NCBI GenBank assembly: GCA_016188475.1
Contig: JACPHT010000006.1
Coordinates: 2,330-66,329 of the forward strand
Source: Candidatus Uhrbacteria bacterium
GTDB lineage: Bacteria; Patescibacteriota; Patescibacteriia; UBA9934; GWF2-40-263
Direction: 5' to 3'
DNA: 64,000 nucleotides
Shown: positions 18,442 through 36,706 of the stretch, piece by piece
How positions within the stretch are numbered: position 1 is the stretch's first letter
How the letters are laid out: the number at the start of each line of letters is the position of its first letter
Notes under the pieces: generated by a model
The model's input: the letters and a program-made list of their open reading frames with translations, nothing else
Databases searched by the model: none
Told to the model about the DNA's origin: nothing
Translations under genes and position numbers: made by a program

Positions 18442-18456
18442 AAAATTTTGTGAAGT

Positions 18457-18729: not shown

Positions 18730-18783
18730 GTCATTATTATATACCCCTATATCCTATTTAAGAAAGTATTGTGTGGATAACTA

Positions 18784-19482
18784 TCAGATATGTTTGATCT
18801 TCCGCCAAGTTAGATGTTCATAAATACCGGACCACAAAAATCCAAAACTTAATGCGAACAGAAGTTCTTCAAGCGGAATGCCTAAAATAATTATTCCGGA
18901 AATTGCTTTTAAATTCCAAACTTGCTCAACATATCCGGGATACAAAGCAACTAAAGTTAAAAAGTAAACGAAATATAAAAATAAAAAAATAAATGCGCTC
19001 GTGAGCATTTTCTTTTTAAGATCAGGACGGCAATACCACGCAAACAAACCGCCTACGATCATTGCAATAATCGCGGAGTAAATTGGGTTTAATTTTGTTG
19101 TTGCTAGTAAAATAAAAAATGCAATTGGCGCGGAAATGATTGTAAGGAAATGATAACGGTGGTGTTGGTTATGCTGTTCTTCAGAGCTCATTGAACTGTG
19201 CTTTACGTTATAAAATTGTTCATAAATAACAACCGCGAGTCCTCCGATACCAAATGAAAAAATAAAACTTTCAATATCGAATCCTGTATTGATCGCCAAA
19301 TTGAATAAAGATGGTGGCAACCAATATTCGGGAACAAAAAAAGGCTCGGTTATTCCCAAAAGAGAAGTCCAAAAACTGACAATAAGCATTTCGCGTCTTT
19401 TATCTTTACTATTAAGTCTTATGTAAACAATAAGCCAAATTGATATCAATATCAAACTCCAAATTAACCAGGCATAATGCAT
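18784..19482 (-). CDS. integral membrane protein (His-rich loop HNQHHRYH)
   Basis: Multi-TM protein adjacent to the CsoR-like gene. Confidence 0.4.
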   Translation of the reverse strand: MHYAWLIWSLILISIWLIVYIRLNSKDKRREMLIVSFWTSLLGITEPFFVPEYWLPPSLFNLAINTGFDIESFIFSFGIGGLAVVIYEQFYNVKHSSMSSEEQHNQHHRYHFLTIISAPIAFFILLATTKLNPIYSAIIAMIVGGLFAWYCRPDLKKKMLTSAFIFLFLYFVYFLTLVALYPGYVEQVWNLKAISGIIILGIPLEELLFALSFGFLWSGIYEHLTWRKIKHI

Positions 19483-19587
19483 ATTAAAATAATACTACCA
19501 CAAAAAGCGAATCAAAGCAGTTAACTTGCCTTGGATAGCAACGAATTTTTGAAAAGAGCGATATATTAGCGTATTATTTTTAGCTAT

Positions 19588-20793: not shown

Positions 20794-20859
20794 GTTGAAA
20801 ACAGTCATCAAATGATGACTGTTTTTTCTAGGTATGTTATTATATGTCTAGAAAGATAT

Positions 20860-21249
20860 ATGGCAAAGAAAAAGAATAATGCGAGCAGGATCTTAATTGT
20901 TGAAGATGACGCGCTGTTGTTAAGTGTGCTCTCCAACACATTTAAGAAAGCTGGTTTTGAAATTGCGACAGTTGAAAATGGCCTTGAAGTCGAAGAAGCT
21001 GTAAAAAAAATCTCGCCGAATTTGATTTTACTTGATTTGATTATTCCTGGAATAGACGGATTTGAAGTTTTGAAACGACTAAAAGCCAGCGACACATCAA
21101 AAGAAATTCCTGTTATTATACTTTCTAATCTTGAAGATGTCGGAGACGTGAAATCAGGGCGGGCTCTCGGCGCTGATGAATATTTTATCAAGGCAAATAT
21201 CGAAGTTGAGAAAATTGTCGATTATGTAAAAAAGAAAATTGAAGTATAA
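20860..21249 (+). CDS. response-regulator receiver-only protein (CheY-like)
   Basis: ILIVEDD...LILLDLIIPGIDG...K. Start set at MAKKK. Confidence 0.75.
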   Translation: MAKKKNNASRILIVEDDALLLSVLSNTFKKAGFEIATVENGLEVEEAVKKISPNLILLDLIIPGIDGFEVLKRLKASDTSKEIPVIILSNLEDVGDVKSGRALGADEYFIKANIEVEKIVDYVKKKIEV

Positions 21250-21250
21250 T

Positions 21251-21634
21251 ATGCCAGCAAACAAGAACAAGATGATTCTTATAGTTGAAGACGATGAAAT
21301 AATGCTTCGCGCGATGTACCTTTCATTTCATAGAGAAAATATTTCAATCTCAACAGCGACAGACGGCGAACAAGCTTTGAAAATGACAGAAAGGCTTAAA
21401 CCTGATTTGGTTCTTTTGGATTTGATAATGCCAAAAATGGACGGATTTGAATACCTGAAAAACATGAAAGCTAATTCTGCAATATCAAAAATCCCAGTTG
21501 TTGTTCTCTCAAATCTTGGAGACAACGACAGTATTGAAAAAGCAAAAGAGTTAGGAGCCGAAGATTACTTTGTAAAATCAGATACGAATTTGTCTGATCT
21601 TGTGGCAAAAACTCGAAAATTACTTAACAATTAA
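21251..21634 (+). CDS. response-regulator receiver-only protein (CheY-like), tandem paralogue
   Basis: ILIVEDDEIM...LVLLDLIMPKMDG...K. Confidence 0.75.
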   Translation: MPANKNKMILIVEDDEIMLRAMYLSFHRENISISTATDGEQALKMTERLKPDLVLLDLIMPKMDGFEYLKNMKANSAISKIPVVVLSNLGDNDSIEKAKELGAEDYFVKSDTNLSDLVAKTRKLLNN

Positions 21635-21645
21635 TTTTTTCAAAT

Positions 21646-22473
21646 GTGAAATATGCTTGGCTCAACCTTATACTGCAACTGACGAATCGGATTTATCAAA
21701 GGAAGCAAAAGGTGGTTGAACAAGAAGGCTTTTTGGCGGTAACAAATGTCTTCTCGCTGATACTTTTAGAAACAATTTTGGCAATAGTATCACTGCCATT
21801 GTATTTGAATTTAAGACCGGAAAAAGTTGCTGCTTTTCTTGAGGAAAAAGGCGGATATGAGAAAATTACTTTTGATTATAATCTTCGTCGCATTTTGACT
21901 TTAACAGGTGTCGGCATCATTTTGTTTATCTGGATTATAAAATTACTGCTCATAATTCTTGTTCCGGTTGTTTTCGGTCCGTTGAAGCTGTATAGCATTT
22001 CAGATCTTCGACCACCTGACTTGATGGCAGTCAACACTGATTTAATCAAAGCCGAAACAGATATTCAAACCGCAAGGACAACTTCAAGTTTGACTGTTCC
22101 TGAATTAAAGGAAGTTAAAAAGAGCCAAGGCAAAAATTTCATTTTTTACGGAGTCGGTCAGCCAAATTCAACAGTCGTTCTTTTGTTGTCGGATCTGCAA
22201 ACAGCAGTGTACACAGGCGAAGTTGGGAGTGACGGCTTTTGGAAAATAGATCACAGCCAAAAGGATTTCAAATTGAATGAGGGTAATCATTCTGTCTTAG
22301 CGTTTACTTTTGATGAAAGCTCAAAAACCAGAAGTCAGTTTTCTAACGAACAATATTTTAAGGTCAGAACATCTTTTCTTGATATTGTAATAAGAGAAGT
22401 TGATGTTTTGGCCAACTGGTCTGTTGTTGTAATTCTGTTTGTTGGAATGTTTTTGGTCTTTTTGACAGTTTAA
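21646..22473 (+). CDS. membrane-anchored secreted protein; N-terminal anchor is paralogous to that of the giant gene
   Basis: N-terminal LETILAIVSLPLYLNLRPEK resembles VEMIFTVVSLPLFFIVSPKK of the next gene. Confidence 0.4.
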   Translation: MKYAWLNLILQLTNRIYQRKQKVVEQEGFLAVTNVFSLILLETILAIVSLPLYLNLRPEKVAAFLEEKGGYEKITFDYNLRRILTLTGVGIILFIWIIKLLLIILVPVVFGPLKLYSISDLRPPDLMAVNTDLIKAETDIQTARTTSSLTVPELKEVKKSQGKNFIFYGVGQPNSTVVLLLSDLQTAVYTGEVGSDGFWKIDHSQKDFKLNEGNHSVLAFTFDESSKTRSQFSNEQYFKVRTSFLDIVIREVDVLANWSVVVILFVGMFLVFLTV

Positions 22474-22477
22474 AAAT

Positions 22478-24850
22478 ATGATTGAACGTTTTTCAATTAT
22501 TTTTCTCAGATTTTCAGGAATTATTTTTAATCTCAAAGGCCGATTGATTCAAGCTGAAGGCTGGCATAGAGCTCTTCCGATTGCCGTTGAGTTGATCGTC
22601 GTCGAAATGATTTTTACCGTTGTATCTTTGCCATTATTTTTTATTGTTTCACCAAAGAAAATACAGGAATCCGGTTTCATTTTTCCGTCAAAAGAAAAAG
22701 AGCATTTTCATAATTTTTCTGTAAGAAGAAAAATTACGCTAACAACAACTTTTGGCGCGGCCTTGATCTACGCGATTAAGATTATTTTTGTTGGCATCGT
22801 GTCTTTATATTTATTCGGCGCGACCCCGCTTCTTGCCGCAATTCAAAACTGGGATTTTAGCACAGCAGGCGATTACACTTATGATTCATCAAAAATTGAA
22901 GTGACAGGTGGAGTGGCACAACTTAAAAATTTAGGCTCAACAACCAGCGGGGCAACAACAAATCCTTCGTTTGATTCTAATTCAACAGGTTGGACATATG
23001 CTGATTGGGATCAAGGTGGTGGCGAAGTAGATGTTAAGGGAGATCGTCAGACCACAGGAGGAAATCCTAACGGATGGTTAAGAATCAATGTTCCTTCAGG
23101 ATCTGATGATGAATTGGGGGGATATTGGCGTCAATCTTTTATAACGACTGTTGCTGATCCGACAACGACAGTGAGTTTTGATTGGAAAGTTACGGCGTTT
23201 GATTCGTCTCCAGGGCCAATTACGTTCAAACTTTTTGCGTTTGTTGATACTGGTTCAGGTGTTCCTGTTATAGGAAATGAGGTTTGGACGTCTGGTGAAA
23301 TAACCGGAACAAGCGGGTGGGCTTCTGTGAGCAATCTCGATGTGTCGTCAAAGGTTACAGCCGCTGGAACGTACTATCTGAAGATTGCCACTTGGGTTGA
23401 AACTCCAGGGTCTGCTACTGGTCCGTTTACTTTGGGTTATGACAATGTTCAATTGAATTGGACAAAAACAACAGTAAGTTACGATACAAGCAATCCAACA
23501 ATCACTCCGAACAGTTCTCTTACGATGTCAAAAACAATAAGTTGGAACGGGTTTACTGAAACTGCGACAAAAAATGGAGGGGAAATTTATTATCAACTTT
23601 CTGATGACGATGGTTCTACTTGGAAATATTGGAATGGCTCTATTTGGACAACAGCAGGCGCTACCAACTACAACATTGCAACAGAAGTTAATACAAACAT
23701 CGGCACATTCCCTACAACCAACAACAAAATAAAGTGGAAAGCATTTTTATCAAGCAGTGGAACTCAACAAGTGATTTTAGATAATATCGCGATCGATTAC
23801 ACTGAAAACAGTTTGCCAGTAATTAACAACTTGTCTGCAAGTCAAGGAACAAGCACGGGCCGCGTTTATATCACTTATGATTTGCAGGACAACGATAGCG
23901 ATCCGGAAAGTTTAACAGCATATGAATACTCTTTGACAGGCGCTTTTTCTGGAGAGCAAGTTACAATGACAGCCGCAACAGGAGATGGGTTGCATAGCGG
24001 TGTGACTGGTCTGACATCGTCTCCAGTTGGAATTTCACACACTTTTGTTTGGGACGCATTTTCACAACTCGGAGCAGTTTATAATACAACTGTTTATGTT
24101 CGTTTGCGTGCAAATGACGGGGTTGGAAACGGAGCTTACGCAACTTCAACTGCGTTTACGGTCGATTATGTAAATCCTGTTGTGTCAAACGTTGTTGCGT
24201 TGCAGACTGCTGGTTCAACAAATGTTCAGATCACTTATGATTTAACTGACAATACATCAGACAATCTGCTTGTTGAAATTTATATTTCAGATGATGGCGG
24301 CGCAACTTGGGCTGTAACAGACACGTCTGTTTCAGGAAGTGTTGGGTCAAGTCAAACAACTGGAGTTGGGAAAACAATCACATGGAATGCCGGAGTTGAT
24401 TTTGATGAACAAAATCAAGCTGACATTCAAGTTAGAGTTCGCGCGAAAGACAAGTGGCAAAATCAGGGGAACAATGTAGCCTCAGCAAATTTTTCGCTTG
24501 ATACTTTGAATCCAGTTGTTCTCACAACTTCCAATCTCCAATCTCAACCAAACGCAGGAGACACAACTGTTTTGATTGGAGGGTCGTTTACTGAAACAAA
24601 TCCAAACACCAATGATTTTTATGTTGCAATAAACGGCGGAGCTTATGGTTTGGCAACTTCAGGAACTACAAACACATCTTCACCTTCAAACCAAGCAACT
24701 TCTGTCGGCTCAACACTTGACGGAAACGATTACATTTCAAAAGTTAAAATCACTCACACTGATGATTATGGTCAAACAGTTGATAATGAAAACTTTGTCA
24801 TCGCCTGTAACAACTGTTTTGGATTTGACAATAAATCCAAATGTGAGTGA
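22478..24850 (+). CDS. giant cell-surface protein, fragment 1 (N-terminal anchor plus Ig/FN3-like repeats); the frame is lost near 24794
   Basis: Tandem ~95-aa domains ending ...TITWNAGVDFD..Q.D..VRVRA.D...NQG...S.F..DT..P. The C-terminal 20 aa are out of frame; a +1 T in a T3 run at 24794-24796 explains this. Confidence 0.6.
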   Translation: MIERFSIIFLRFSGIIFNLKGRLIQAEGWHRALPIAVELIVVEMIFTVVSLPLFFIVSPKKIQESGFIFPSKEKEHFHNFSVRRKITLTTTFGAALIYAIKIIFVGIVSLYLFGATPLLAAIQNWDFSTAGDYTYDSSKIEVTGGVAQLKNLGSTTSGATTNPSFDSNSTGWTYADWDQGGGEVDVKGDRQTTGGNPNGWLRINVPSGSDDELGGYWRQSFITTVADPTTTVSFDWKVTAFDSSPGPITFKLFAFVDTGSGVPVIGNEVWTSGEITGTSGWASVSNLDVSSKVTAAGTYYLKIATWVETPGSATGPFTLGYDNVQLNWTKTTVSYDTSNPTITPNSSLTMSKTISWNGFTETATKNGGEIYYQLSDDDGSTWKYWNGSIWTTAGATNYNIATEVNTNIGTFPTTNNKIKWKAFLSSSGTQQVILDNIAIDYTENSLPVINNLSASQGTSTGRVYITYDLQDNDSDPESLTAYEYSLTGAFSGEQVTMTAATGDGLHSGVTGLTSSPVGISHTFVWDAFSQLGAVYNTTVYVRLRANDGVGNGAYATSTAFTVDYVNPVVSNVVALQTAGSTNVQITYDLTDNTSDNLLVEIYISDDGGATWAVTDTSVSGSVGSSQTTGVGKTITWNAGVDFDEQNQADIQVRVRAKDKWQNQGNNVASANFSLDTLNPVVLTTSNLQSQPNAGDTTVLIGGSFTETNPNTNDFYVAINGGAYGLATSGTTNTSSPSNQATSVGSTLDGNDYISKVKITHTDDYGQTVDNENFVIACNNCFGFDNKSKCE

Positions 24851-25001
24851 AGCATCGGACGTTGAATATGCTATTGCATAAACATCGACCAATCAGTTTG
24901 TTCAAGCAAACGGAACGCTTGGAGCAAGCGCTGTTTGGGAAGTTATTGGAACATCAAGCGGACAATGGGGAAACAACACTGGAATATCTGGAAAAGTTCA
25001 T

Positions 25002-26759
25002 GTGAGCGGACTTACTTCTCCTGTTGCAAATTATATTTTCAAAGTTAAATCGAGAAATCCGAGCGACGCGGCGCACGCTGTTTCATCTGAATCTGCATAT
25101 TCCGCAACAGCACAAATTACAAATACTGCTCCGTCAATTTCACTTGGCTCAATTGCGCAAACTACCGATGGCACTGATTATGTAACAATAAATTATACTG
25201 GAACTGATGGGCAAGGTGACGTAAATAGTTTGACCGTTTTTGAATATTCTATAGACAACTCAACGTGGAGCACAATGACAGAAAAAACAGGAGTCGGATC
25301 GGACGGAACTTCGAATTTGGTGTTCTTGCCAAGCGGAAGCGCGCATGACTTCATGTGGGATGTCGGGACAGATCTGCCTAGTGTTGAAGATTCTACAGTG
25401 TATATTCGACTTCGTTCTTCAGACACATTAACGACGAGCACTTTGGTAACTTCATCGGCTTTTGAGATAGACACTGTTTTGCCTGTTGTTTCAAGTGTTT
25501 CAGCTTCACAAAATTTAGGCGCCCGCACTGTTGTATTCACATACACGCTCACTGACGCGAACAGCTCTTTGGTTGAATTGGATATATCAGAAGACGGAGG
25601 TTCAACTTGGAACGTAACAGACACATCAGTATCAGGTCATGTTGGTTCAGGAGTGACGCCTGGAAGCAAAACAATAACGTGGAATGCTGGAGCTGATTTT
25701 GATAATCAATACCAAACAGACTTGCAGGTTCGAATACGCGCGAAAGATACTTTTGGAAATCAAGGCACGAACACGTCATCATCAAATTTTACAGTTGATA
25801 CAAACGACCCTTCTGTTACAAATGTTAGTGCTGTTCAAGACAGCATGCTCGATACGTTTACATTTCATTACGACGTGAGTGAAGATGTTGGAAACGTCGC
25901 AATCGGACTTGAAATTTCAAGCAACGGAGGAACAACTTGGACAATACCAACAACAACAGTTACGGGTGATACTGGATCTGGAATTGCTCCTGGAGCAAAC
26001 AAAACAATAACTTGGAATGCGGCTGTGGATTACAACAGTCAGGAAAAAACAAACATGAAAATTCGCGTGACAGCAACGGATGGATTTAGCAATACTTCAA
26101 ACGCGAGCTCTGCAAATTTTTCACTTGACACACTTGCACCTCGTGTAACAAATGTCGGAGCATCGCAAACTCTCGGAACAACAAACATTTCAATCACATA
26201 CACTCTTGCTGATCAAAATGTGTCGCTCGTTGAAATTGATATTTCAGATGATGGCGGAGCGACTTGGGCAGTGACAGATACAAGCGTTACTGGAGATGTT
26301 GGAACTGGAGTTTCTTCAGGGAGCAAAACAATCACATGGAATGCCGGAGTTGATTTTGATGAACAAAATCAAGCTGACATTCAAGTTAGAGTTCGCGCGA
26401 AAGATGTCTATGAGCATCAAAGCGCAAATGTTGCTTCTTCAAATTTTTCGCTTGATACTTTGAATCCAGTTGTTCTTACAACTTCCAATCTCCAATCTCA
26501 ACCAAACGCCGGAGACACAACTGTTTTGATTGGAGGTTCGTTCACTGAAACAAATCCAAACACTAATGATTTTTATGTTGCGATAAACGGAGGAGCTTAT
26601 GGTTCGGCAACTTCAGGAACTACAAACACATCTTCACCTTCAAACCAAGCAACTTCTGTCGGCTCAACACTTGACGGAAACGATTACATTTCAAAAGTTA
26701 AAATCACTCACACTGATGATTATGGTCAAACAGTTGATAATGAAAAATGTGACAGTTAA
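25002..26759 (+). CDS. giant cell-surface protein, fragment 2
   Basis: Same repeat architecture. Upstream, the same frame is open from about 24795 to the TAA at 24879-24881, where the paralogous repeats have GAA. A +1 A in the A5 run at 26743-26747 then shifts the frame. Confidence 0.55.
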   Translation: MSGLTSPVANYIFKVKSRNPSDAAHAVSSESAYSATAQITNTAPSISLGSIAQTTDGTDYVTINYTGTDGQGDVNSLTVFEYSIDNSTWSTMTEKTGVGSDGTSNLVFLPSGSAHDFMWDVGTDLPSVEDSTVYIRLRSSDTLTTSTLVTSSAFEIDTVLPVVSSVSASQNLGARTVVFTYTLTDANSSLVELDISEDGGSTWNVTDTSVSGHVGSGVTPGSKTITWNAGADFDNQYQTDLQVRIRAKDTFGNQGTNTSSSNFTVDTNDPSVTNVSAVQDSMLDTFTFHYDVSEDVGNVAIGLEISSNGGTTWTIPTTTVTGDTGSGIAPGANKTITWNAAVDYNSQEKTNMKIRVTATDGFSNTSNASSANFSLDTLAPRVTNVGASQTLGTTNISITYTLADQNVSLVEIDISDDGGATWAVTDTSVTGDVGTGVSSGSKTITWNAGVDFDEQNQADIQVRVRAKDVYEHQSANVASSNFSLDTLNPVVLTTSNLQSQPNAGDTTVLIGGSFTETNPNTNDFYVAINGGAYGSATSGTTNTSSPSNQATSVGSTLDGNDYISKVKITHTDDYGQTVDNEKCDS

Positions 26760-29700
26760 TAAAAACGCGGTTGAAACAGATGGTTTGGAATATGCGATTT
26801 TTGAAACAAGTCAGAATCAATATGTTCAGACAAACGGAACGCTTGGCGCGAGTGCGATTTGGCGAACAACAGCGCAGTGGGGAACAGTGACGGTAAACGG
26901 CCTTGCGAATGATTCATATACTTATCAATTTAAAGTCAAATCTCGAAACACAAGCGATGGCTCTAACGCGGCATCAAGCGAAAGCGCGCTTTCAGGAGGC
27001 GCATCGTCTGCGAATCAATCTCCAGTGATCGTGCTTGGATCAATTGCTCAAACAACAGACGGTTCGAGATACGTCACTATAAACTATACTGGATCAGACT
27101 TGGAAAGCGAAAATACGACGATTATAACAGCCGAATACTCTACGAACGGTACGACATGGAACAACATGACGGAAAAGTCTGGAGTTGGAAGCGATGGAAA
27201 AACAGGCCTTGTTTTCGTATATACAGGAACAGCGCACGATTTCATGTGGGATGTAGGAACTGATCTTGCTAACGTTGAAGACTCGACTGTTTTTATTCGC
27301 TTGCAAGCAAATGATGGAACGTCTGACGGAGGAGTTGCAACATCAAGTGCGTTTACAATTGACGCAAAAAATCCAGTGATCTCATCAGTATCAGCTGAAC
27401 AACAAAATGGTTCAAACAATGTTGTGTTCAGTTATACACTTACTGATCTTTCAAATAGTCTTGTTGAAATTGATATTTCAGACGATGGGGGAGCTACATG
27501 GAATGTCACTGATACTTCAGTCACTGGCGATATCGGCGCAGGGGTTTCACCAGGAACAGGAAAAACAATAACATGGAATCCCGGAGTTGATTTTAGCGGA
27601 CAAGAACAGTCAGATTTGCGTGTGCGAGTTCGCGCAACAGATATTTTTGGAAATGCTGGCGCAAACGCGTCGTCAGCGAATTTTTCAGTTGATACAGAAT
27701 CGCCGCGTATCACAAATGTTACAGCTTCTCAAGATTCCGGATTGAATACTGTAACAATTGGATATGATATCGAGGACGCAAATGTTTCAAATGTTGTTAT
27801 AGAAATTTCCGAAGACAACGGATTAACATGGGGAGTCGCAACAACAACTCTTTCTGGAGATGTCGGAGCCGGTATTACATCTGGAATTGGCAAAATAGTT
27901 TCGTGGAATGCGGCCGTTGATTTCCCGAATCGTGAACAATCAGGAATGATGATTCGCGTGCGCGCGACTGATTCTCACAATAATTTAAGCGGCAATGTTT
28001 TTTCACCTTCATTTTCTGTTGACACTCTTGCGCCAGTTATTTCTAGTGTTTCCGCTTCGCAAACCTTGGGTTCTGACAATGTCGTCTTTACTTACAATTT
28101 ATCTGATAGCGGTTTTGTAAATATAGAGCTTGATATTTCACAAGACAGCGGCGCTACTTGGACAGTGACGGATACGTCTGTAATAGGTGCTATAGGATCA
28201 GGACAAACAACGGGAAATGGAAAAACAATCACATGGAATGCCGGAGTTGATTACCCAGATGAAGATCGTTCAACAATGCGAGTTCGAATTCGCGGAACCG
28301 ATGGATTCAGCAATATGAGCGTGAATGTTGAATCATCTGATTTTATAATTGACACATTTGATCCAACACCAAACGTCACTTCCAATCTCCAATCTCAACC
28401 AAACGCCGGAGACACAACTGTTTTGATTGGAGGGTCGTTCACTGAAACAAATCCAAACACTAATGATTTTTATGTTGCGATAAACGGAGGAGCTTATGGT
28501 TCGGCAACTTCAGGAACTACAAACACATCTTCACCTTCAAACCAAGCAACTTCTGTCGGCTCAACTCTTGACGGAAACGATTATATTTCAAAAGTTAAAA
28601 TCACTCACACTGATGATTACGGACACAGTGTTACAAATCAAAACACATCACCAAATACATCTTTGAAGTATGTGAAGCCTTACACTCCGCAAGCGCCAAC
28701 AGTTAATAATCCTCAAAATACATCAGTTGATGTTACGATCATTCCACATGCGTCTGAAACATCTGGTTTGGAATACGCAATTTTTGAAACAACAACTGGA
28801 AAATATGTGAAAGCCAACGGCACGCTTGACACAAGCCCTGTTTGGAGAACCACAACCGCATGGGGGACAATCACAGTGACAGGCCTATCTTCACCTGTTG
28901 CTCAATATAGTTTCAAAGTGAAATCAAGAAACACATCAGACACGCTTAACGCGGTTTCTAGCGAAAGTAATTTTTCTTCTTCAAACGCAATCGCAAATAC
29001 TTCTCCATCTATCTCGATTACAAGTGTTGCTCAACAAACGTCAACAAGTTACGCGCTGATTGAATACATTGGGACAGATACTCAAAACGACACAAATAAT
29101 TTAACGACTTTTGAATATTCAACCGACGGTTCATCATGGAATGTAATGACTGAAAAATCCGGAGTTGGAAGTGATGGAACTTCAGGGTTAATTTTCACTT
29201 CAAGCGGCGCGGCATTCACATTTGGATGGGATATTGCGGCAGACTTACCAAACACAGGCGACCAAACGGTTTACGTTCGTTTGCAATCAACCGATACGCT
29301 TGCAAACAGCAACATGGCTACTTCTTCGGCGTTTGCGGTAGACACGCTTGGTCCTGTTATTTCAAATATTCAAATAAGTCAGGCACCAGGTACAAACATA
29401 ATGACATTTACTTACGATCTTTCAGACAGCACAGCCGCGAATAATACGGTGACATTGCAAATTTCGTCTGACGCTGGTTTGACATGGACAGTTCCAACAA
29501 CTTCCGCAACAGGAGATGTAGGCTCTGGTGTTTCGTCCGGACTTGCTCGTTCAATAACATGGAACGCCGGAGTTGATTTTGACAATCAAGAAAATTCAAC
29601 AATGCAAATTAGATTGCAAGGAACGGATGTGTATGACAACAGTGGCGCAATTTCAACGTCTTCGAACTTTACTGTCGATACAAAATCTCCTGTTGTTTCA

Positions 29701-32700
29701 GGAGTATCAGCAGTTCAAGTCGATGATTCAAAAAATGTTCAAGTCAATTACACTTTGAGCGATCTATCTTCTGGTGGTTTGTTGGTTGAGTTCAGTATTT
29801 CATCAGATAACGGAACAACATGGACAGTTCCTGCTGTCACATACAGCGGAGATGTTGGATCAGGACAAACAACAGGCGCAAAACAATTTGTTTGGAATGC
29901 GGGAGCTGACTTTGATGATGAATATCAGGACGACATGAAAGTCCGCGTTCGCGCTCGAGATTATTTTGCAAATCAAGGCGTGTACACATCGTCATCGGTA
30001 TTTGAAGTTGATACAAGAGCCTCTGTTGTTTCTGATGTTTCTGCTGTTCAGAATACAGGAGCGCGCACAGTGAACATCGCTTACGATCTAACTGACGACA
30101 CTTCAAGCAATTTGAATGTTGAGTTTGAAGTTTCAGAAGATAATGGAATCAGCTGGACAATAGCGCACAGTTCATCAACAGGAAACGTTGGTTCAGGACA
30201 AACAACCGGAGCTGGAAAGATAATTGTTTGGGATGCCGGAACTGATTTTGACGGACAATTTCAAACTGACATGAAAGTTCGCGTTCGCGCAACTGATCGT
30301 TTTACAAATCAAGGGAGTTTTGTAGATTCGTCTGCGTTTACGCTCGATACTGCCAACCCAGTTGTATCAAATGTTTCAGGTTCTCAAATTTTAGGTTCAG
30401 AAACAGTATCGATTTCTTATAATCTTACAGATGGCACCTCAACCAATCTTTCAACAGTTCTTGAAATTTCTTCAGACAATGGAACGACTTGGACAGTTCC
30501 AACAACTTCTGCCTCTGGAAATATTGGATCAGGCCAGACAACGGGCGCTGGAAAAACAATAACATGGAATGCAGGAGTTGATTTTGATTCAAACGCAAAC
30601 TCAAACATGGAAGCTAGAATTCGCGCTAACGATTCATTTTCAAATCAGGGAAATTTTACAAGTTCATCAAACTTTTCTGTTGACACAAAAGATCCGGCAA
30701 CACTTGCATCATCAGATTTGCAAGCGCAACCTCATGCTGGGGATACTTCAGTTTTGATAGGCGGATCATTTATCGAGACAAGTCCTAACACGAATAATTT
30801 TTTCGTAGCGGTGAATGGAAACGGATATGGTTCGGCTTCAGCTGGAGATTCTGACACGACCTCGCCTTCAAATCATTTGACGCCTGTTGGAATCACGCTG
30901 AAAGGCAACAATCGCATTGGAAAAGTTAAGATCGTTCACGCTGATGATTATGGACATTCATTTACAAATGAGAATTTGTCTCCAGCGACTGCTTTCAAAT
31001 TTGTAAAGCCTTATACGCCGATGGCTCCGACTGTTTCAAATCCAACAACGAATTCTGTTGATGTTGTTGTAAACAAAAATGCGAATGAAGTTTCTGGTTT
31101 GGAATATGCGATTTATGAAACTACTCAAAATAAATATGTTCAAGCCAATGGAACGCTTGGCGCGAGCGCGGTTTGGCAAACCGGAGCTGTTTGGGGAACT
31201 GTTACAGTTACTGGTTTAAACTCTCCTGTTTCAAGTTACATGTTTAAGACAAAGTCGAGAAACAGTGCGGACGTCGCGCACGCCGCTACCAGCGAAAGTG
31301 ATTTGTCATCATCGGCATCTGTTTCTCAAACAGCACCATCAATCACGATTGATTCTGTTTCTCAATCTTCAGGTAACGGTTACGTCATAATAAATTATAC
31401 CGGGGTCGATGAGCAAAATGATGTTAGCAATATTTCAGTAAAAGAATACTCACTCAACGGAATTGATTGGTTTGACATGACAGAAAAATCAGGAGTCGGA
31501 AGTGACGGAATCGCGGGTCTTGAGTTTACAACAACAGGCGCGTCATTTATTTTTGCTTGGGATGCGCAAACCGATGTTTCAGATTTTGAGGATTTTATTT
31601 ATGTCAGATTAAGAGCCAATGATGGAGTTCAAGACGGTAATATAGAAACAAGTTCCGCGTTTGCTTTGGATTTGAAATCGCCAGTTGTTTCAAATGTTTC
31701 TGCTACACAGTTAGCAGGGACAACTTCAATAGAAATCTCATACGATGTTTCCGATTTTACTTCAAATATATCTGTTGCTTTTGAAATTTCTTCAGACAAT
31801 GGCTCAACATGGACAGTGCCTACAACTTCAGCCACAGGAGATTTTGGTTCAGGGCAGACAACGGGAAATGGAAAAATGATCACGTGGAACGCTGATCTTG
31901 ATTTTGACGGACAATATCAAACTGACATGAAAGTTCGCGTTCGAGCAACTGATAGTTTCAGCAATCAAGGAGATTTCAGTGAATCACCAGCTTTCGCTGT
32001 TGAGACAGCAAACCCTGTTGTGTCGAATCTATCAGCCGTACAAATGGCAGGAACAAGCGATGTTGCGGTATTTTACGACCTGTCAGACGACACATCAACA
32101 GATTTGACAGTTGTCTTTGATATTTCTGATGACAACGGCTCAACATGGACTGTTGTTGACACTTCCGTGACTGGAGACATCGGTTCTGGTCAAACAACAG
32201 GAATAAACAAGTCGTTCATTTGGGATGCTGGAACTGATTTTGCAGAACAATATCAAACTGACATGAAAGTTCGCGCTCGAGCAACTGATAGTTTCAGCAA
32301 TCAAGGAGATTTTACCGAATCATCATCATTCAGTGTTGACACAGATGTTCCTGTTGTTTCAAACGTAACTTCTTCTCAAGCAAGCGATTCAGCAAGCGTT
32401 ACGATAACTTACGATCTTTCAGACAACACATCAACAGATTTGACAGTTGTCTTTGATATCTCTGATGACAACGGCTCAACATGGACTGTTGTTGACACTT
32501 CCGTGACTGGAGACATCGGTTCTGGTCAAACAACAGGAATTAACAAGCTGTTCATTTGGGATGCTGGAACTGATTTTGGAAATGAATATCAAACTGACAT
32601 GAAAGTTCGAGTTAGAGCGACTGATAGTTTCAGCAATCAAGGAGATAACAGCGAATCCAATGTGTTTGTTCTTGATACATCCGCACCAGTGATCTCGAAC

Positions 32701-34509
32701 GTTTCAGCATCTCAAAACTTAGGATTTGGAACGGTTACAATTTCGTACGACATTTCAGACGACGTGTTGACTGATTTAATAGTTGATTTGAATGTCTCAA
32801 ATGATGGTGGACTTACTTGGACAGTTTCCCATCCGTCAGTTTCTGGAGATATTGGTTTAGGACAAACCGCAGGAGTTGGTAAAACAATTATTTGGAATGC
32901 CGGAGCTGATTTCGACGATCAAGATTTGTCCACAATGAGGATTCGACTTATTGGCACTGATAGTTTTGGGAACATAAGTTCTCCTTTTGTTTCGACGGAT
33001 TTTGCCGTAGACACGATGGATCCGATTGGACTTGCAACATTTGGAAAGTTTTTGAGCACGAGTACGTCAGTCACAATGAATTGGGGATCGGTTGTTGACA
33101 CAAACTTCGACCATTACGAATTATGGTACGGAAATAATCAAACAGACGTTCAAAATAGGTCTGGTTCTGCTTTAATTTGGTCTGTTGATGATGATTCAGA
33201 TTTGGATAATTCTTTAACGGCTTCTACAACAATCACTGGCATCACACTTGAAGCGGATTTATTTGTGAAGATTTGGGCTGTTGACTCATTCGGACACGAA
33301 ATTACAGCGCAAGATGTAAATGTGTTTACTCCTGTTGCGGCCGCTGGAGCTGTTGGTGGAGGGCAACTTTTAGACTTGATTCCTCCGAATAAACCTGTTT
33401 TGAATCCAGTTGCGACTCCAACAAACAATACAACCGCGATAATAGCCGGATTATCAGAACCAAACTCTTATATTGATCTGTACGACAATGGAGTTTTTGT
33501 TAAGCGTTTATCTTCTCAAGCAAATGCTAGCGGATTTTTCTCCGATGATTTAATTTTTGGAGAGGGAAGCCATCTGCTAACCGCAACAGCAACAGATTTA
33601 TCAGGAAATGTTAGTGAACAATCTGACTCCATCAATCTTGTTGTTGACTTGACCGCTCCAAACAAACCGACCGCATTTAATAAGAACGATTCTGAAATCT
33701 TTGAGATCTCGCCTCTTATTTTTGGAACTTCTGAACCTTTTGCGCTTATAAAAATTGTAATTGACGACACAAACGCAGTTACAACGTCAGCAGATCAAAA
33801 CGGTTATTGGCGATATTTACTTCCAACAGACTTAGCTTTGAATTTAGGAATTCATACGTTTGAATTAACTGCTTCTGATTTGGCTGGAAATGTCAGTGAG
33901 CCTGCCTTATTAACACTACACGTCGTTATACAACCAATTTTACCGCCATCTATATTCACTCCAAGTATTCCTACAATACCAACCATTTCAACGCCTGGAA
34001 TCGGATTATTGCCTGGGGCCGGACTATTAACCGTTCTGCCAACAATAGCTCCACCTGTACCAGTTTCTGAAATAATCAAAGAACAAGTCGAAGCGATTGA
34101 ATTACCGGGTTTGCCAACGCCTGATATTAAATTAGCAAGCACAGTTTATGACGGAAGAAATTTTGTGTTCAGCGGAACTGCGATACCAAACAGTGACGTG
34201 GTTGTCTATATTCACAGCGACCAGGCTCTGATATACACAAGCCACGCAAACGGTAAAGGCGATTGGAATGTGATTCATTCACAGGACGCGACTGAACTTT
34301 CAAAAGGCGATCATACTATCTATGCGATCTCGATTGATCCTATCGCAAAAATAAAAAGCGCCGTGGCGCCGATTAAAATTTTCACAGTTAATAAAAGCTT
34401 ATTGGTTTCAATGTTTAATTATCTGAATTTGCGAACAACAATCGCAAGTGTACTTGTACTTCTCGTGTGTATTTGGTGGTTATACAGATTAAGAAAACGA
34501 AATGCCTAA
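26740..34509 (+). CDS. giant cell-surface protein, fragment 3 (about 2590 aa; at least 20 tandem Ig-like/FN3-like domains; C-terminal TM anchor)
   Basis: Long periodic repeat architecture. C-terminal IASVLVLLVCIWWLYRLRKRNA. The first 47 codons of the track ORF (26599-26739) are an out-of-frame overlap with fragment 2. Confidence 0.65.
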   Translation: MKNVTVNKNAVETDGLEYAIFETSQNQYVQTNGTLGASAIWRTTAQWGTVTVNGLANDSYTYQFKVKSRNTSDGSNAASSESALSGGASSANQSPVIVLGSIAQTTDGSRYVTINYTGSDLESENTTIITAEYSTNGTTWNNMTEKSGVGSDGKTGLVFVYTGTAHDFMWDVGTDLANVEDSTVFIRLQANDGTSDGGVATSSAFTIDAKNPVISSVSAEQQNGSNNVVFSYTLTDLSNSLVEIDISDDGGATWNVTDTSVTGDIGAGVSPGTGKTITWNPGVDFSGQEQSDLRVRVRATDIFGNAGANASSANFSVDTESPRITNVTASQDSGLNTVTIGYDIEDANVSNVVIEISEDNGLTWGVATTTLSGDVGAGITSGIGKIVSWNAAVDFPNREQSGMMIRVRATDSHNNLSGNVFSPSFSVDTLAPVISSVSASQTLGSDNVVFTYNLSDSGFVNIELDISQDSGATWTVTDTSVIGAIGSGQTTGNGKTITWNAGVDYPDEDRSTMRVRIRGTDGFSNMSVNVESSDFIIDTFDPTPNVTSNLQSQPNAGDTTVLIGGSFTETNPNTNDFYVAINGGAYGSATSGTTNTSSPSNQATSVGSTLDGNDYISKVKITHTDDYGHSVTNQNTSPNTSLKYVKPYTPQAPTVNNPQNTSVDVTIIPHASETSGLEYAIFETTTGKYVKANGTLDTSPVWRTTTAWGTITVTGLSSPVAQYSFKVKSRNTSDTLNAVSSESNFSSSNAIANTSPSISITSVAQQTSTSYALIEYIGTDTQNDTNNLTTFEYSTDGSSWNVMTEKSGVGSDGTSGLIFTSSGAAFTFGWDIAADLPNTGDQTVYVRLQSTDTLANSNMATSSAFAVDTLGPVISNIQISQAPGTNIMTFTYDLSDSTAANNTVTLQISSDAGLTWTVPTTSATGDVGSGVSSGLARSITWNAGVDFDNQENSTMQIRLQGTDVYDNSGAISTSSNFTVDTKSPVVSGVSAVQVDDSKNVQVNYTLSDLSSGGLLVEFSISSDNGTTWTVPAVTYSGDVGSGQTTGAKQFVWNAGADFDDEYQDDMKVRVRARDYFANQGVYTSSSVFEVDTRASVVSDVSAVQNTGARTVNIAYDLTDDTSSNLNVEFEVSEDNGISWTIAHSSSTGNVGSGQTTGAGKIIVWDAGTDFDGQFQTDMKVRVRATDRFTNQGSFVDSSAFTLDTANPVVSNVSGSQILGSETVSISYNLTDGTSTNLSTVLEISSDNGTTWTVPTTSASGNIGSGQTTGAGKTITWNAGVDFDSNANSNMEARIRANDSFSNQGNFTSSSNFSVDTKDPATLASSDLQAQPHAGDTSVLIGGSFIETSPNTNNFFVAVNGNGYGSASAGDSDTTSPSNHLTPVGITLKGNNRIGKVKIVHADDYGHSFTNENLSPATAFKFVKPYTPMAPTVSNPTTNSVDVVVNKNANEVSGLEYAIYETTQNKYVQANGTLGASAVWQTGAVWGTVTVTGLNSPVSSYMFKTKSRNSADVAHAATSESDLSSSASVSQTAPSITIDSVSQSSGNGYVIINYTGVDEQNDVSNISVKEYSLNGIDWFDMTEKSGVGSDGIAGLEFTTTGASFIFAWDAQTDVSDFEDFIYVRLRANDGVQDGNIETSSAFALDLKSPVVSNVSATQLAGTTSIEISYDVSDFTSNISVAFEISSDNGSTWTVPTTSATGDFGSGQTTGNGKMITWNADLDFDGQYQTDMKVRVRATDSFSNQGDFSESPAFAVETANPVVSNLSAVQMAGTSDVAVFYDLSDDTSTDLTVVFDISDDNGSTWTVVDTSVTGDIGSGQTTGINKSFIWDAGTDFAEQYQTDMKVRARATDSFSNQGDFTESSSFSVDTDVPVVSNVTSSQASDSASVTITYDLSDNTSTDLTVVFDISDDNGSTWTVVDTSVTGDIGSGQTTGINKLFIWDAGTDFGNEYQTDMKVRVRATDSFSNQGDNSESNVFVLDTSAPVISNVSASQNLGFGTVTISYDISDDVLTDLIVDLNVSNDGGLTWTVSHPSVSGDIGLGQTAGVGKTIIWNAGADFDDQDLSTMRIRLIGTDSFGNISSPFVSTDFAVDTMDPIGLATFGKFLSTSTSVTMNWGSVVDTNFDHYELWYGNNQTDVQNRSGSALIWSVDDDSDLDNSLTASTTITGITLEADLFVKIWAVDSFGHEITAQDVNVFTPVAAAGAVGGGQLLDLIPPNKPVLNPVATPTNNTTAIIAGLSEPNSYIDLYDNGVFVKRLSSQANASGFFSDDLIFGEGSHLLTATATDLSGNVSEQSDSINLVVDLTAPNKPTAFNKNDSEIFEISPLIFGTSEPFALIKIVIDDTNAVTTSADQNGYWRYLLPTDLALNLGIHTFELTASDLAGNVSEPALLTLHVVIQPILPPSIFTPSIPTIPTISTPGIGLLPGAGLLTVLPTIAPPVPVSEIIKEQVEAIELPGLPTPDIKLASTVYDGRNFVFSGTAIPNSDVVVYIHSDQALIYTSHANGKGDWNVIHSQDATELSKGDHTIYAISIDPIAKIKSAVAPIKIFTVNKSLLVSMFNYLNLRTTIASVLVLLVCIWWLYRLRKRNA

Positions 34510-34513: not shown

Positions 34514-36706
34514 CTAAACCAGTGTTTTTGTACCCGATTTCTTTTTCATTCCTTTTAACGGTATTGTAACAAAGAATGTTGTTCCTTTTCCTTCTTCTGA
34601 TTCAAAACGGATTGTACCGCCAGTTTGATCAAGAATTCCTTTCACAAGGTACAGGCCGAGTCCGGAGCCATCCGTGTCAATCTTTCTGGCATTGTCAGCT
34701 CTGAACATTTTTGTAAAGATTTTGGAATGTTGTGTTTTTGGTATTCCGATTCCATTGTCAGAAATTATTATCAGAGCGTTTTTACCATTCTTTTTTACAT
34801 CAAAACTTATTGCTCCATTTTTTGGAGTATATTTTGTGGCATTTGAAAGAATGTTTTGAAAAATCATTATTGTAAGTTTTGGATCAACTTTAATCATCGG
34901 AAGATTTGGATCGAAAGATGTTTTTAAGGTTTGTTTTTTATTTATAATACTTTGCTTCAACTCATCAATCGCTGTGTCAGCGATTTTGCGTAGGTCACTT
35001 ATTATTGGCTCGCTTATAAACACACCAAGTTCAATTCTCGAGACGTTAAGCAGAGAATTTATCAACTCACTCATGCGTTTTGAACTTGAGTATACGTCCT
35101 TAAGATATAACAGTTGTTTTGTTGTCATTTTTCCTGCGTTTCCAGACATTAACATTTCAATAAACCAATTTATTGAAGTAAGAGGTGTTCTAAGTTGATG
35201 GCTCGCGAGCGACACGAATTCAGTTTTTGCTTTGTCAATTTGTTTTTCTAAAGTTACATCGCGCTCAACACCGACAAAAAAAATTATTTTTCCTTTGTCA
35301 TCAAAAATTGGCGTGATAATGATTTGCGCTGTATAAATTTCTCCATTTTTTCGTTTATTTTGGATTTCACCGTTAAAGACTTTCTTTTTGGTTTTAATTG
35401 TATTCCAGAGTTTTTTGTAAAAATCTTTTGGCATCAATCCCCCCCAAAGGGAACCTGATTTTTTTTCAATCGCTTCTGAAGGCTTATATCCGGTTATTTT
35501 TTCAAGTGAACGATTCGCATACAAAACAACTCCTTCAGGATCAGTGATAATGATTTGATCTGAAACGTTGTCAACAGCTAATTTGAATTTTTCAAGCTCA
35601 CGTGTTTTCACTTCGACCATCGATTCCAACTTATTTGAATATTCGAGAAGTTCTTTATTATTTTTTTCAAGAGATCTTGCCATTTGATTAAATGAATTTG
35701 CAAGTTCTTCAATCTCATCACTGGTTTTAACTTTAACTCTGTACTTATAATTACCACGTTGAATTTGTTTTGCTCCTAAAGTTAGAGAATAGATCGGATT
35801 TGTTATGAGTCTTCCCAGAAGCCAAGAAACAAAAACTATAAATAATAAAAAAATCAAACAAAAAATAAATATAACGATCCCGACCGTGTTCGCTGGCATT
35901 AACAATTCTTTTGTATCAATTTTTGTCACGATCCCCCATTTTCTTTCAGGAATATAACTCCAAACAGCAAACACTTTTACGCCTCGATAATCAATTCTTT
36001 GTCCTTGTCCGATTTTTTGTTGAACAGCATCTTGTATTGGCAAACCAACAGGATCGTTAATTTTGACTGTTTTGTTAAATGCCGCGTTTTTATCAAAAAG
36101 TAAAGGATTTATAAACGTGAGATATGTTTTATCAGGACTCAATACCGCAAGGAGCGTTTCTTCACTTCCGCCTATTCTTCCAGAACTTTGCACAACTTTA
36201 AATAAGTTTTCCGCGCTTATTTCCAACATGACTGTTCCTATAAAAGGTTCCCCGAGGTTGTTTATTGGTGCGCCTATAAGGAAATCTATTGAACCGTCTG
36301 TTTGATTTTTATAAAGATCACTTATAAAAATTTTATCTTGCGCGTTTTGTAAAGTTTGCTTTCCAAGATCAGGGAATTTTGCATTCGAAGAAAAAATAAA
36401 ATTTCCATCGCTATCTAGAATAAAAAGTTTTTTTACATCAGCATTCTTTTTAAGAAAACTCTCTGCTTTAGTATTTATTTGATCATTGAGTCTAATTTCA
36501 TCTATCAACGAAGTTGTTTTAAGTTTCCATTCATCAAAAAAGTTTTTGATTATCAGTATTTTTAGGTTTGCGGATTGTTCAAATGACCGTTCTTGTATAT
36601 TTATAAGTGTTTTGCGAAAACTCCAATTTGAAAACAAAAAAACAAATACTATCTGAATGATGGAAATCAATAAAATACTAAAAAGAATCTTTTTAAACAT
36701 ACTCAT
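34514..36706 (-). CDS. sensor histidine kinase (extracellular sensor, TM, HAMP, PAS, HisKA, HATPase_c)
   Basis: H-box ASHQLRTPLT; N box NATKYT; G boxes DNGIGI and GSGLGL. PAS region with a coiled-coil linker. Confidence 0.85.
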   Translation of the reverse strand: MSMFKKILFSILLISIIQIVFVFLFSNWSFRKTLINIQERSFEQSANLKILIIKNFFDEWKLKTTSLIDEIRLNDQINTKAESFLKKNADVKKLFILDSDGNFIFSSNAKFPDLGKQTLQNAQDKIFISDLYKNQTDGSIDFLIGAPINNLGEPFIGTVMLEISAENLFKVVQSSGRIGGSEETLLAVLSPDKTYLTFINPLLFDKNAAFNKTVKINDPVGLPIQDAVQQKIGQGQRIDYRGVKVFAVWSYIPERKWGIVTKIDTKELLMPANTVGIVIFIFCLIFLLFIVFVSWLLGRLITNPIYSLTLGAKQIQRGNYKYRVKVKTSDEIEELANSFNQMARSLEKNNKELLEYSNKLESMVEVKTRELEKFKLAVDNVSDQIIITDPEGVVLYANRSLEKITGYKPSEAIEKKSGSLWGGLMPKDFYKKLWNTIKTKKKVFNGEIQNKRKNGEIYTAQIIITPIFDDKGKIIFFVGVERDVTLEKQIDKAKTEFVSLASHQLRTPLTSINWFIEMLMSGNAGKMTTKQLLYLKDVYSSSKRMSELINSLLNVSRIELGVFISEPIISDLRKIADTAIDELKQSIINKKQTLKTSFDPNLPMIKVDPKLTIMIFQNILSNATKYTPKNGAISFDVKKNGKNALIIISDNGIGIPKTQHSKIFTKMFRADNARKIDTDGSGLGLYLVKGILDQTGGTIRFESEEGKGTTFFVTIPLKGMKKKSGTKTLV

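Follow-up and report, generated by a model that had tools for sequence, protein, structure and literature searches.

Two out-of-frame deletions and a nonsense codon in the assembled giant surface-protein gene of a groundwater Candidatus Uhrbacteria bacterium, probably a recent pseudogene

Giant bacterial adhesins built of Ig-like domains, such as SiiE, the LapA/MpIBP type with its Ca-tandemer/Big_13 modules and the Bap/Embp-like proteins, exceed 4,000 aa and consist of tandem beta-sandwich modules, and the protein described here resembles them in both respects, as well as in its C-terminal Big_13/Ca_tandemer domains and in being encoded by one of the largest genes of its genome. Homopolymer contingency loci offer a second parallel (i.e. 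a surface-protein gene with frame changes beside mononucleotide runs), and the known tracts of that kind are far longer than T3 or A5, typically 7 or more. A third likeness is to the BNR/Asp-box sialidases, because the motif S-x-D-x-G-x-T-W is repeated in the giant protein. The locus stems from a groundwater Ca. Uhrbacteria MAG, and in GenBank it appears as three separate proteins. The MAG may belong to the groundwater study PMC7906910, in which assembly was by MEGAHIT with IDBA-UD scaffolding.

In the window (the whole stretch of DNA that was analysed, 64,000 nt), the ORFs 22478-24850, 25002-26759 and 26599-34509 are collinear parts of one surface-protein gene (Table 1). The first-pass annotation had taken them for pieces of a single gene of ~4,000 aa, which is borne out by syntenic orthologs that are single ORFs of 3,180-3,993 aa (and in one case at least 4,492 aa), and the positions that it gave were all correct (TTT at 24794-96, TAA in frame at 24879-81, AAAAA at 26743-47, end of the third ORF at 34509). 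Deletion of one T from the first run and one A from the second yields a frame of 12,030 nt and 4,009 codons, in which codon 801 is the sole internal stop. The ancestral gene had ~4,057 codons and encoded a giant, repetitive, membrane-anchored surface protein. Fragment 1 holds two N-terminal hydrophobic segments, an N-terminal module of ~330 aa, two beta-sandwich units and X-module 1, while fragment 2 (annotated as HYV69_01465, with a GTG start at 25002 and 585 aa) supplies the remainder of F-module 1 along with four beta-sandwich units and X-module 2. Fragment 3, annotated as MBI2475072.1 (ATG start at 26722, 2595 aa) under the name 'exo-alpha-sialidase', comprises F2, X3-F3, X4-F4, 11 Asp-box beta-sandwich units and Ig domains of the Big_13/Ca_tandemer type, along with a Pro-rich linker and, at the C-terminus, a hydrophobic helix that carries a basic tail. 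In GenBank, one disrupted giant surface-protein gene should replace the three CDSs, of which the last is misnamed.

Table 1. Coordinates in the window of the gene fragments, lesions, repeat blocks and neighbouring genes
Feature	Position	Strand	Remarks
Two single-domain response-regulator genes	20812..21634	+	conserved upstream of the locus
275-aa ORF, HYV69_01455	21646..22473	+	upstream, ends 4 nt before the giant gene
Fragment 1, HYV69_01460	22478..24850	+	790 aa; out of frame after 24793; ends with TGA at 24848-50
Homogenised block copy 1	24371..24792	+	ends at deletion junction 1
Deletion junction 1	24790..24796	+	GAAAAC/TTTGTC; 56 nt absent; microhomology AAC
In-frame TAA	24879..24881	+	replaces GAA (Glu) in the motif L/V-x-Y-A-x-x-E-T/S
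Fragment 2	24882..26759	+	frame open after the TAA; ORF 25002-26759
Homogenised block copy 2	26325..26746	+	ends at deletion junction 2
Deletion junction 2	26743..26749	+	GAAAA/ATGTGAC; 86 nt absent; microhomology 0-1 nt
Fragment 3	26749..34509	+	ORF 26599-34509
Homogenised block copy 3	28378..28619	+	followed by intact linker and F-module
dCache-HAMP-PAS histidine kinase	34514..36706	-	convergent with the giant gene

Both the architecture of repeats and the hydrophobic anchor at the C-terminus, which had been recognised at first sight, are real, but the main repeat unit measures 110-112 aa (330-336 nt spacing), instead of ~95 aa. The whole protein contains 15 Asp-box units, 5 related units and 4 X-F super-repeats, and the Asp-box motif occurs 16 times. 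A 113-aa unit was modelled with AF2 as a beta-sandwich (pLDDT 93.9), for which the top Foldseek matches are generic Ig-like folds with weak E values (6e-3 or higher), while the C-terminal part matches Big_13 with an E value of 1e-14 and the NCBIfam Ca_tandemer model above its cutoff. The prediction for copy 3 of the X-module plus F-module is poorer (mean pLDDT 53.9), with X unpredicted and F, at ~70-85, again a beta-sandwich, and Foldseek returned nothing significant for this model, so that the label 'FN3-like' that the F modules had been given is at most tentative; Pfam fn3 also misses them. The identity as exo-alpha-sialidase was rejected, since BNR reaches only 23.5 bits (cutoff 27), no sialidase family turned up in the Pfam and NCBIfam scans and the units fold as beta-sandwiches. 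BNR is outscored by Reelin subrepeat-B, which aligned only around the Asp-box. The orthologs conserve both the hydrophobic segments at the N-terminus and the basic-tailed helix at the C-terminus, and it is through these that the protein appears to be anchored. The N-terminal module is common to Patescibacteria type-IV-pilin-like proteins, and together with the overall architecture it suggests that the giant protein presumably acts as an adhesin.

The surroundings of the gene are conserved as well. At syntenic loci the order is response regulator, response regulator, 275-aa ORF and giant gene, in which the small ORF (HYV69_01455) combines an Ig-like module with a C-terminal anchor common to the C-terminus of the giant protein and has a counterpart at nearly all orthologous loci; at one of them (L002) a homologous histidine kinase also comes after the giant gene. 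Among 29 related loci from other Patescibacteria, the giant gene is uninterrupted in 25, also through the positions of the lesions, either as a complete single ORF (15 loci, up to 3,993 aa) or open to the end of the contig (10 loci). Breaks at related loci consist of a 1-nt deletion in L001 and a CAG->TAG change in L002 (both k-mer-based Logan contigs, by which it is clear that real lesions do occur in this gene family), a T6->T7 frameshift in the L006 ortholog at a coverage of 3.3x, and two similar internal, out-of-frame deletions in L030, another MAG of the same family. What emerges is a conserved, uncharacterised Patescibacteria locus, present in several lineages, in which two response regulators and a small anchored protein are accompanied by an Asp-box/Ig-like protein of 3,000-4,500 aa, the latter being a plausible host-attachment factor.

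The two frame changes had been ascribed to +1 slips in homopolymers, yet at both sites comparison with all intact copies reveals a deletion junction instead. The motifs KVKI.H.DD and LEYAI.ET lie 67 aa apart in every matched intact paralog and ortholog, versus 48 aa in copy 1 (19 missing) and 38 aa in copy 2 (29 missing), and the corresponding gaps in the DNA alignment are 56 and 86 nt, both 3n+2. At junction 1 the missing piece amounts to 18 codons plus 2 nt, i.e. the linker ..TSP..YKYVKPYTP.AP and part of a Thr codon, the position of the ~56 missing nt being preceded by GATAATGAAAAC and followed by ACTTTGTCATCGCCTGTAACAACT. Codon by codon, ACT TTG TCA TCG CCT GTA ACA ACT was kept (TLSSPVTT, the end of the linker), so that the TTT at 24794-96 is part of the ancestral ACT-TTG (Thr-Leu) and 'LSSPVTT', once thought paralogous to 'NENLSPATA', actually corresponds to '(AP)TLS.PVTT' in the orthologs. 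At junction 2, where GAAAA precedes and ATGTGACAGTTAATAAAAAC follows the position of the ~86 missing nt, ~29 codons were lost, namely those for the linker and for the strand with which F-module 2 begins; this junction can alternatively be parsed as an in-frame deletion of 87 nt plus one extra A. Both deletions thus hit the linker and first strand of a beta-sandwich F module after an X module. The proposed one-base repairs do restore the reading frame, but not the ancestral protein, from which 19 + 29 residues remain absent. More generally, what looks in a repetitive gene like a frameshift beside a short run of one base may turn out to be a deletion junction, which only comparison with paralogs and orthologs brings to light.

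The third lesion, a TAA in place of GAA, had been identified correctly, as the Glu at this position is invariant both among the orthologs (15/15) and among the intact paralogs (3). Reassignment of the stop codon was considered and rejected, given that the orthologs are unbroken and that the window uses all three stop codons normally, with TAA the commonest genuine stop (20 uses among 47 genes). Three lesions in 12 kb of this gene, versus 5 in ~210 kb at the 29 related loci and none seen in the other ~52 kb of the window, are more than chance events. Elsewhere in the window, housekeeping genes are full-length (ATP synthase alpha/gamma/beta, MetRS, M17 peptidase, DEAD helicase, sigma factor), and no gene-breaking frameshift was detected at 71 long homopolymers.

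Both deletions begin at the identical base, which is the 3' edge of blocks that are nearly identical in modules 1-3. Copies 1 and 2 share exact stretches of at least 31 nt (of which 141 nt at 24652-24792), while copy 3 is 96.7% identical to copy 1 over 24527-24768 and 98.8% identical to copy 2 over 26481-26722 (242 nt). None of 17 orthologous genes has internal repeats that reach 88% identity over 80 nt, and because no ortholog has such near-identical blocks, recent intragenic gene conversion is suggested. That the repeats exist is confirmed by raw reads, as a Logan contig of run SRR12113419 (L035) matches window 13113-24400 at 99.99% and ends exactly 30 nt (k-1) inside the first exact repeat. 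It was the only independent assembly recovered, and its end at 24400 lies before the lesions. ORF1, ORF2 and ORF3 have no second copy in the Logan assemblies (only the NCBI contig was found), no near-identical fragments were obtained when the stretch between the frameshift sites (reconstructed aa 773-1424) was searched as protein, and for the 38-aa frame-2 piece there was no exact match. A candidate 23-mer from upstream of both junctions had a single match among metagenome contigs, a chance one in an FtsX-like gene, and was discarded.

Following these results, it seems that the lesions are real and that the gene is a recent pseudogene with three lesions, a reading to which we assign a probability of roughly 60%. 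The principal alternative is that the gene is intact in the cells and that the contig results from wrong joins at the exact repeats, with the TAA as a minor allele or consensus error. At each junction (24792 and 26746) an exact repeat comes precisely to its 3' end, and because the de Bruijn graphs of assemblers branch at such points, a repeat-associated join error is a natural suspect; the Logan contig does break at the 5' border of this repeat system. The downstream 7.8 kb, wholly open and with all conserved motifs intact, would also fit an artefact, as would the similar deletions in L030. However, junction microhomology of only 0-3 nt is far below any k-mer overlap, a path through the graph requires read-supported k-mers, and the window is free of the Ns that joins made in scaffolding normally leave behind. 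In the rest of the 64 kb no broken gene was seen, the repeats are confirmed from raw reads and the G->T nonsense change would be left unexplained, which makes an artefact somewhat unlikely while keeping it the most serious competitor.

Phase variation and recoding are both unlikely. Slippage by +1 in the T run and the A run, whether as slipped-strand phase variation or as miscalled runs, draws on the fact that removal of one base at each run gives a continuous frame, that an in-frame loss of 87 nt with a subsequent A4->A5 is formally allowed at the second site, and that the L006 ortholog has its low-coverage T6->T7 frameshift. Yet 19 and 29 conserved residues are missing exactly at these runs and stay missing after repair, so the extra base would have to coincide with a junction twice; the T3 is ancestral sequence, runs of T>=3 and A>=5 are ubiquitous in the locus (296 and 24, respectively), longer runs elsewhere in the window are unaffected and the TAA is not reversible by this route, all of which leaves slippage very improbable. 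Hardly any credence at all is given to a functional split, whether into three separately expressed proteins, as the three annotated CDSs would have it, or through programmed +1 frameshifting with stop read-through. Both shifts are indeed +1 and share the upstream context GTTGATAATGAAAA, and L001 is broken within ~10 codons of site 1 too, but the shared context is merely the homogenised block and the L001 lesion is of a different type (a 1-nt deletion) in a different sequence. The uninterrupted state of 25/29 related loci through both sites and the orthologs' Glu at the position of the TAA, the main stop codon here, further disagree with such a split. Nor do fragments 2 and 3 have hydrophobic N-termini or signal-like sequences there, and promoter-like sites (32 versus 32.0 by chance, with a consensus scan that is crude for CPR bacteria) do not exceed chance, none lying directly 5' of either fragment.

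If, then, the gene is a recent pseudogene, its inactivation would have involved a 56-nt deletion out of frame at 24793, a nonsense change GAA->TAA at 24879 and an 86-nt deletion out of frame at 26747, the deletions being presumably caused by intragenic gene conversion or template switching that was resolved illegitimately at the level of microhomology. The 2,586 codons 3' of the last lesion display no more decay, all 15 Asp-box units keeping their invariant residues, which fits either very recent inactivation or a gene that is intact in the cells; the MAG may also be the consensus of a population that is polymorphic for the lesions. As judged from the sequence, the 790-aa N-terminal fragment, which alone keeps the start and the membrane/secretion segments, could still be expressed, whereas fragments 2 and 3 appear to lack an export signal and are probably silent. 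With real lesions, the organism would recently have lost or truncated a plausible host-attachment factor. A further-reaching and decidedly doubtful idea is that lineage-specific gene conversion of the X-modules actively makes null or truncated host-attachment alleles in this episymbiotic CPR bacterium. It would imply on/off or length variation at the population level that is based on recombination, not on homopolymer slippage, and the breaks in 5/30 lineages would be the outcome of recurrent selection, be it for loss or in favour of the truncated form of 790 aa.

Compared with the known systems, the giant protein departs from the Ig-like adhesins in that no known sorting motif (RTX/T1SS signal, LPXTG) is recognised in it, that its main units carry an Asp-box hairpin and reach the cutoff of no Pfam family, and that its N-terminal module is the one of the type-IV-pilin-like proteins. 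From the BNR/Asp-box sialidases it differs by units that are beta-sandwiches of ~112 aa instead of beta-propeller blades, and by the lack of a sialidase catalytic domain in the Pfam and NCBIfam scans. Unlike the homopolymer contingency loci, it combines runs of just 3 and 5 nt with deletions of 56 and 86 nt and an extra nonsense codon, and because of the deletions at the frame changes and this codon the change is not reversible. With the bacterial pseudogenes that arise in large surface-protein genes by frameshifting deletions and nonsense mutations it shares intact syntenic orthologs, several independent disabling lesions, and the clustering of these lesions in one gene between intact neighbours, while two of its three lesions are set apart in having the same left breakpoint, which lies where gene-converted repeats end.

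The three consecutive open reading frames ORF1 (790 aa), ORF2 (585 aa) and ORF3 (2,636 aa), here also called fragments 1 to 3, each lie in a different frame of the same strand. ORF1 matches HYV69_01460, from a 'Candidatus Uhrbacteria bacterium' MAG (147,865-bp contig), at 100% identity, ORF2 is HYV69_01465 in GenBank, and ORF3 is present there as MBI2475072.1, so that the public record takes the pieces as three ordinary proteins. Read in all frames, the ORF overlap at site 1 gives '...HTDDYGQTVDNEN' and then, in frame +1, 'LSSPVTTVLDLTINPNVSEASDVEYAIA*TSTNQF...', while that at site 2 gives '...HTDDYGQTVDNEN' and then, in the next frame, 'VTVNKNAVETDGLEYAIFETSQNQY...'. Taking one T out of the first run and one A out of the second opens a frame of 4,009 codons (12,030 nt) whose single internal stop is the TAA; in ORF listing, frame reading and repaired frame, every coordinate of the first-pass annotation proved correct. 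The window is otherwise a normal bacterial chromosome (~40% GC, with HtrA, two response regulators, a histidine kinase, the ATP synthase operon and MetRS among its genes), and its 47 genes employ all three stop codons (TAA 20, TAG 17, TGA 10).

Features of the window, and lesions of broken orthologs at their own loci
Feature	Position	Strand	Remark
ORF1	22478-24850	+	
ORF2	25002-26759	+	
ORF3	26599-34509	+	
Fragment 3 in GenBank	26722-34509	+	start ATG 26722; 'exo-alpha-sialidase'
N-terminal module	22835-23812	+	residues 120-445, ~330 aa
Site 1	24794-24796	+	TTT
Nonsense codon	24879-24881	+	TAA
Site 2	26743-26747	+	AAAAA
Homogenised block, copy 1	24380-24792		
Homogenised block, copy 2	26334-26746		
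Homogenised block, copy 3	28378-28619		
275-aa ORF	21646-22473	+	directly 5' of giant gene
GIY-YIG homing-endonuclease ORF	7150-7473	+	
Group I intron	7410-7733	+	within 7100-7790
GC-rich ORF	52870-54411	+	1.5 kb, 513 aa
Broken ortholog L001	~10030-10060		1-nt deletion, ~10 codons from the window's site 1
Broken ortholog L002	7291-7293		CAG->TAG
Broken ortholog L006	~7240-7250		T6->T7, assembly at 3.3x coverage
Broken ortholog L030 (MAG)	~1450-1470 and ~4680-4700		two out-of-frame internal deletions

Related loci were found in Uhr-, Magasanik-, Buchanan- and Falkowbacteria and in other Patescibacteria, 31 through a genome-collection scan and 2 more in Logan assemblies (public k-mer assemblies of raw sequencing runs), with a common neighbourhood of two response regulators, the conserved 275-aa ORF and then the giant gene. 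The latter is a complete single ORF at 15 loci (3,180-3,260 aa at L004, L005, L007, L013, L015, L016, L018 and L025; 3,993 aa at L010), is open up to the contig end at 10 (at least 4,492 aa at L003), and is broken at 4 of the 29 other loci by lesions that differ between them. The three fragments are collinear with these single ORFs at loci of the same neighbourhood, by which comparison the proposal that they constitute one gene is confirmed. Five of the records (L003, L005, L008, L018, L019; TPA MAGs) are titled 'uncultured Gammaproteobacteria bacterium' and bear the Patescibacteria-type locus at 52-73% identity; their organism names look wrong.

Both frame breaks had been read as +1 slips in homopolymers, which does not hold, because they are the junctions of out-of-frame deletions. 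In a DNA alignment of the four X-F super-repeats (X module, linker and F module), copy 1 is 56 nt short of the intact copies 3 and 4 and copy 2 is 86 nt short; each length is 3n+2 and so equal in effect to a +1 shift. Exactly 67 residues separate 'KVKI.H.DD' from 'LEYAI.ET' in all intact paralogs and in every pattern-matched ortholog copy, and BLAST against 15 orthologs gives a gap of 19 residues at site 1 and of 27-29 residues at site 2. Where orthologs have the codons ...AAT GAA AAY ACN TCN CCN ...(linker)... GCG CCA ACN TTG TCN .. CCT GTN ACA ACN, the window has GAT AAT GAA AAC|TTT GTC ATC GCC TGT AAC AAC T, which one base over reads (A)CT TTG TCA TCG CCT GTA ACA ACT (TLSSPVTT); by this codon-level comparison, the TTT is part of ancestral Thr-Leu codons, and microhomology at the junction amounts to 3 nt (AAC). 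At site 2 (junction GAAAA|ATGTGACAGTT, ancestral ..GTT GAT GTG ACA GTT), an 86-nt deletion (microhomology 0-1 nt) would explain the sequence; the less parsimonious alternative is the loss of 87 nt in frame together with the gain of one A. Two in-frame deletions, each later gaining one base at its own junction, would need two coincidences. In the predicted F-module structure, the copy 1 deletion takes the linker together with the beginning of the first strand, and that of copy 2 the whole first strand and the start of the second. The TAA, noted earlier as replacing the paralogs' GAA, indeed takes the place of a Glu present without exception in the three intact paralogs and in 15/15 orthologs.

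Phase variation by slipped-strand mispairing, likewise suggested from the sequence, is rejected together with the homopolymer mechanism. The T3 and A5 runs are ordinary in a locus that holds 296 runs of T>=3 and 24 of A>=5, and known contingency loci use much longer tracts. Among the 71 runs of A/T >=7 or G/C >=6 in the window no split genes were found, and its suspect ORF pairs and housekeeping genes gave full-length family matches. Moreover, slippage can undo neither the two deletions nor the TAA.

Favoured instead are two out-of-frame deletions and a nonsense mutation, which we connect with gene conversion confined to this lineage. Near-identical DNA blocks lie within X modules 1-3, with copies 2 and 3 98.8% identical over 242 nt and copies 1 and 3 96.7% identical over the same stretch. 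Copies 1 and 2 differ at just 8 positions across 24486-24792, and their last 141 nt (24652-24792 in copy 1) are exact, ending at 24792 and 26746, which are the two deletion junctions. Six copy 1-specific differences cluster in 24556-24651, and one alone alters an amino acid. The pattern, mosaic and sharp-edged, is as would be expected of gene-conversion tracts, and points to two or more distinct tracts within sequence that had been subject to purifying selection. Intragenic repeats of >=88% identity over 80 nt were absent from 17 orthologous genes (0/17), so that the homogenisation belongs to this lineage alone, or else to this assembly. It may be that the X modules were homogenised by ectopic recombination or template switching between them, and that illegitimate resolution of the event's 3' end, in the diverged linker, deleted the 56 and 86 nt.

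We put the probability of a genuine pseudogene, with real lesions, at about 0.6. At 0-3 nt, the microhomology at the junctions falls well below any assembler overlap, the window has zero Ns, a nonsense substitution is not a repeat-type error, and three lesions fall in one gene versus none detected in ~52 kb of flanking sequence; lesions of the giant-gene family are also carried by the k-mer-based Logan contigs L001 and L002. A further Logan contig (L035, assembled independently at k=31 from raw run SRR12113419) matches window positions 13113-24400 with one mismatch; its end lies exactly 30 nt inside the first exact repeat, whose start is at 24371. Given a repeat present in the reads, 24400 is the point where a unitig must stop, and the repeat system is therefore real, at least at its 5' edge.

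An assembly artefact is rather unlikely, even though each junction coincides with the end of an exact repeat, which is a branch point for graphs, and both deletions have one left breakpoint in common. It would also fit the 7.8 kb downstream, which are undecayed (15/15 Asp-box units retain their invariant residues), and the two similar out-of-frame internal deletions of MAG L030 and the T6->T7 change of L006 at 3.3x coverage. All other explanations together are very improbable.

The reconstructed protein, described in its own coordinates, begins with two hydrophobic segments that are conserved in orthologs, followed by the N-terminal module, which sequence matches place at 38-41% identity (E about 1e-76) to a module in Patescibacteria proteins beginning with a prepilin N-methylation motif. 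Single copies or tandem pairs of this module are found in prepilin-type proteins annotated PilV or PulG (P0040, P0096). One extra B unit and one A unit precede the four super-repeats, each running from an X module through a linker and a beta-sandwich F module to a B unit and 3-4 A units (15 A units in total). Then come two Big_13/Ca_tandemer Ig domains (NCBIfam NF033510, 55.4 bits versus a cutoff of 50), a Pro-rich stretch, a further Ig-like domain that occurs in the upstream 275-aa protein too, and, at the C-terminus, a hydrophobic helix with a basic tail. The A unit (113 aa, with the Asp-box S-x-D-x-G-x-T-W) is predicted as a beta-sandwich (pLDDT 93.9), for which Foldseek returned generic Ig-like folds only, with weak E >= 6e-3. 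The name 'exo-alpha-sialidase' of fragment 3 is a misnomer that stems from the Asp-box motif, its sole support; the units are Ig-like beta-sandwiches, with no sialidase domain. For the F modules, earlier termed FN3-like, a beta-sandwich is predicted with moderate confidence (pLDDT about 70-85); FN3 identity is a candidate only. We infer a surface adhesin role for the giant protein. The 275-aa ORF, kept at nearly every orthologous locus (L001-L031), is ~30% identical to the C-terminal Ig-like module and anchor of the giant protein (residues ~3,880-4,000), and its product may be a partner or a paralogous anchor protein.

Elsewhere, the window contains a complete group I intron (Rfam RF00028, 83 bits), with a GIY-YIG ORF just upstream and overlapping it and tRNA-like halves on either side of the pair. 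ARAGORN found no tRNA in the window as it stands, and in silico spliced candidates gave tRNA-Lys(UUU) in 520/637 calls; the site is probably an intron-split tRNA gene. A 52% GC stretch (versus the ~40% background) holds a 513-aa ORF, which has no Pfam match and, by Rfam, no rRNA.

As the sequence is written, fragment 1 is the one piece that could be made with a start and membrane/secretion segments of its own. Fragments 2 and 3 begin inside domains, have no hydrophobic N-terminus, and show no promoter signal above chance (32 promoter-like sites found versus 32.0 +/- 4.7 expected). Disrupted giant surface-protein genes in MAGs are a known kind, of which this locus is a new example, with modest extra value for CPR surface biology and annotation.
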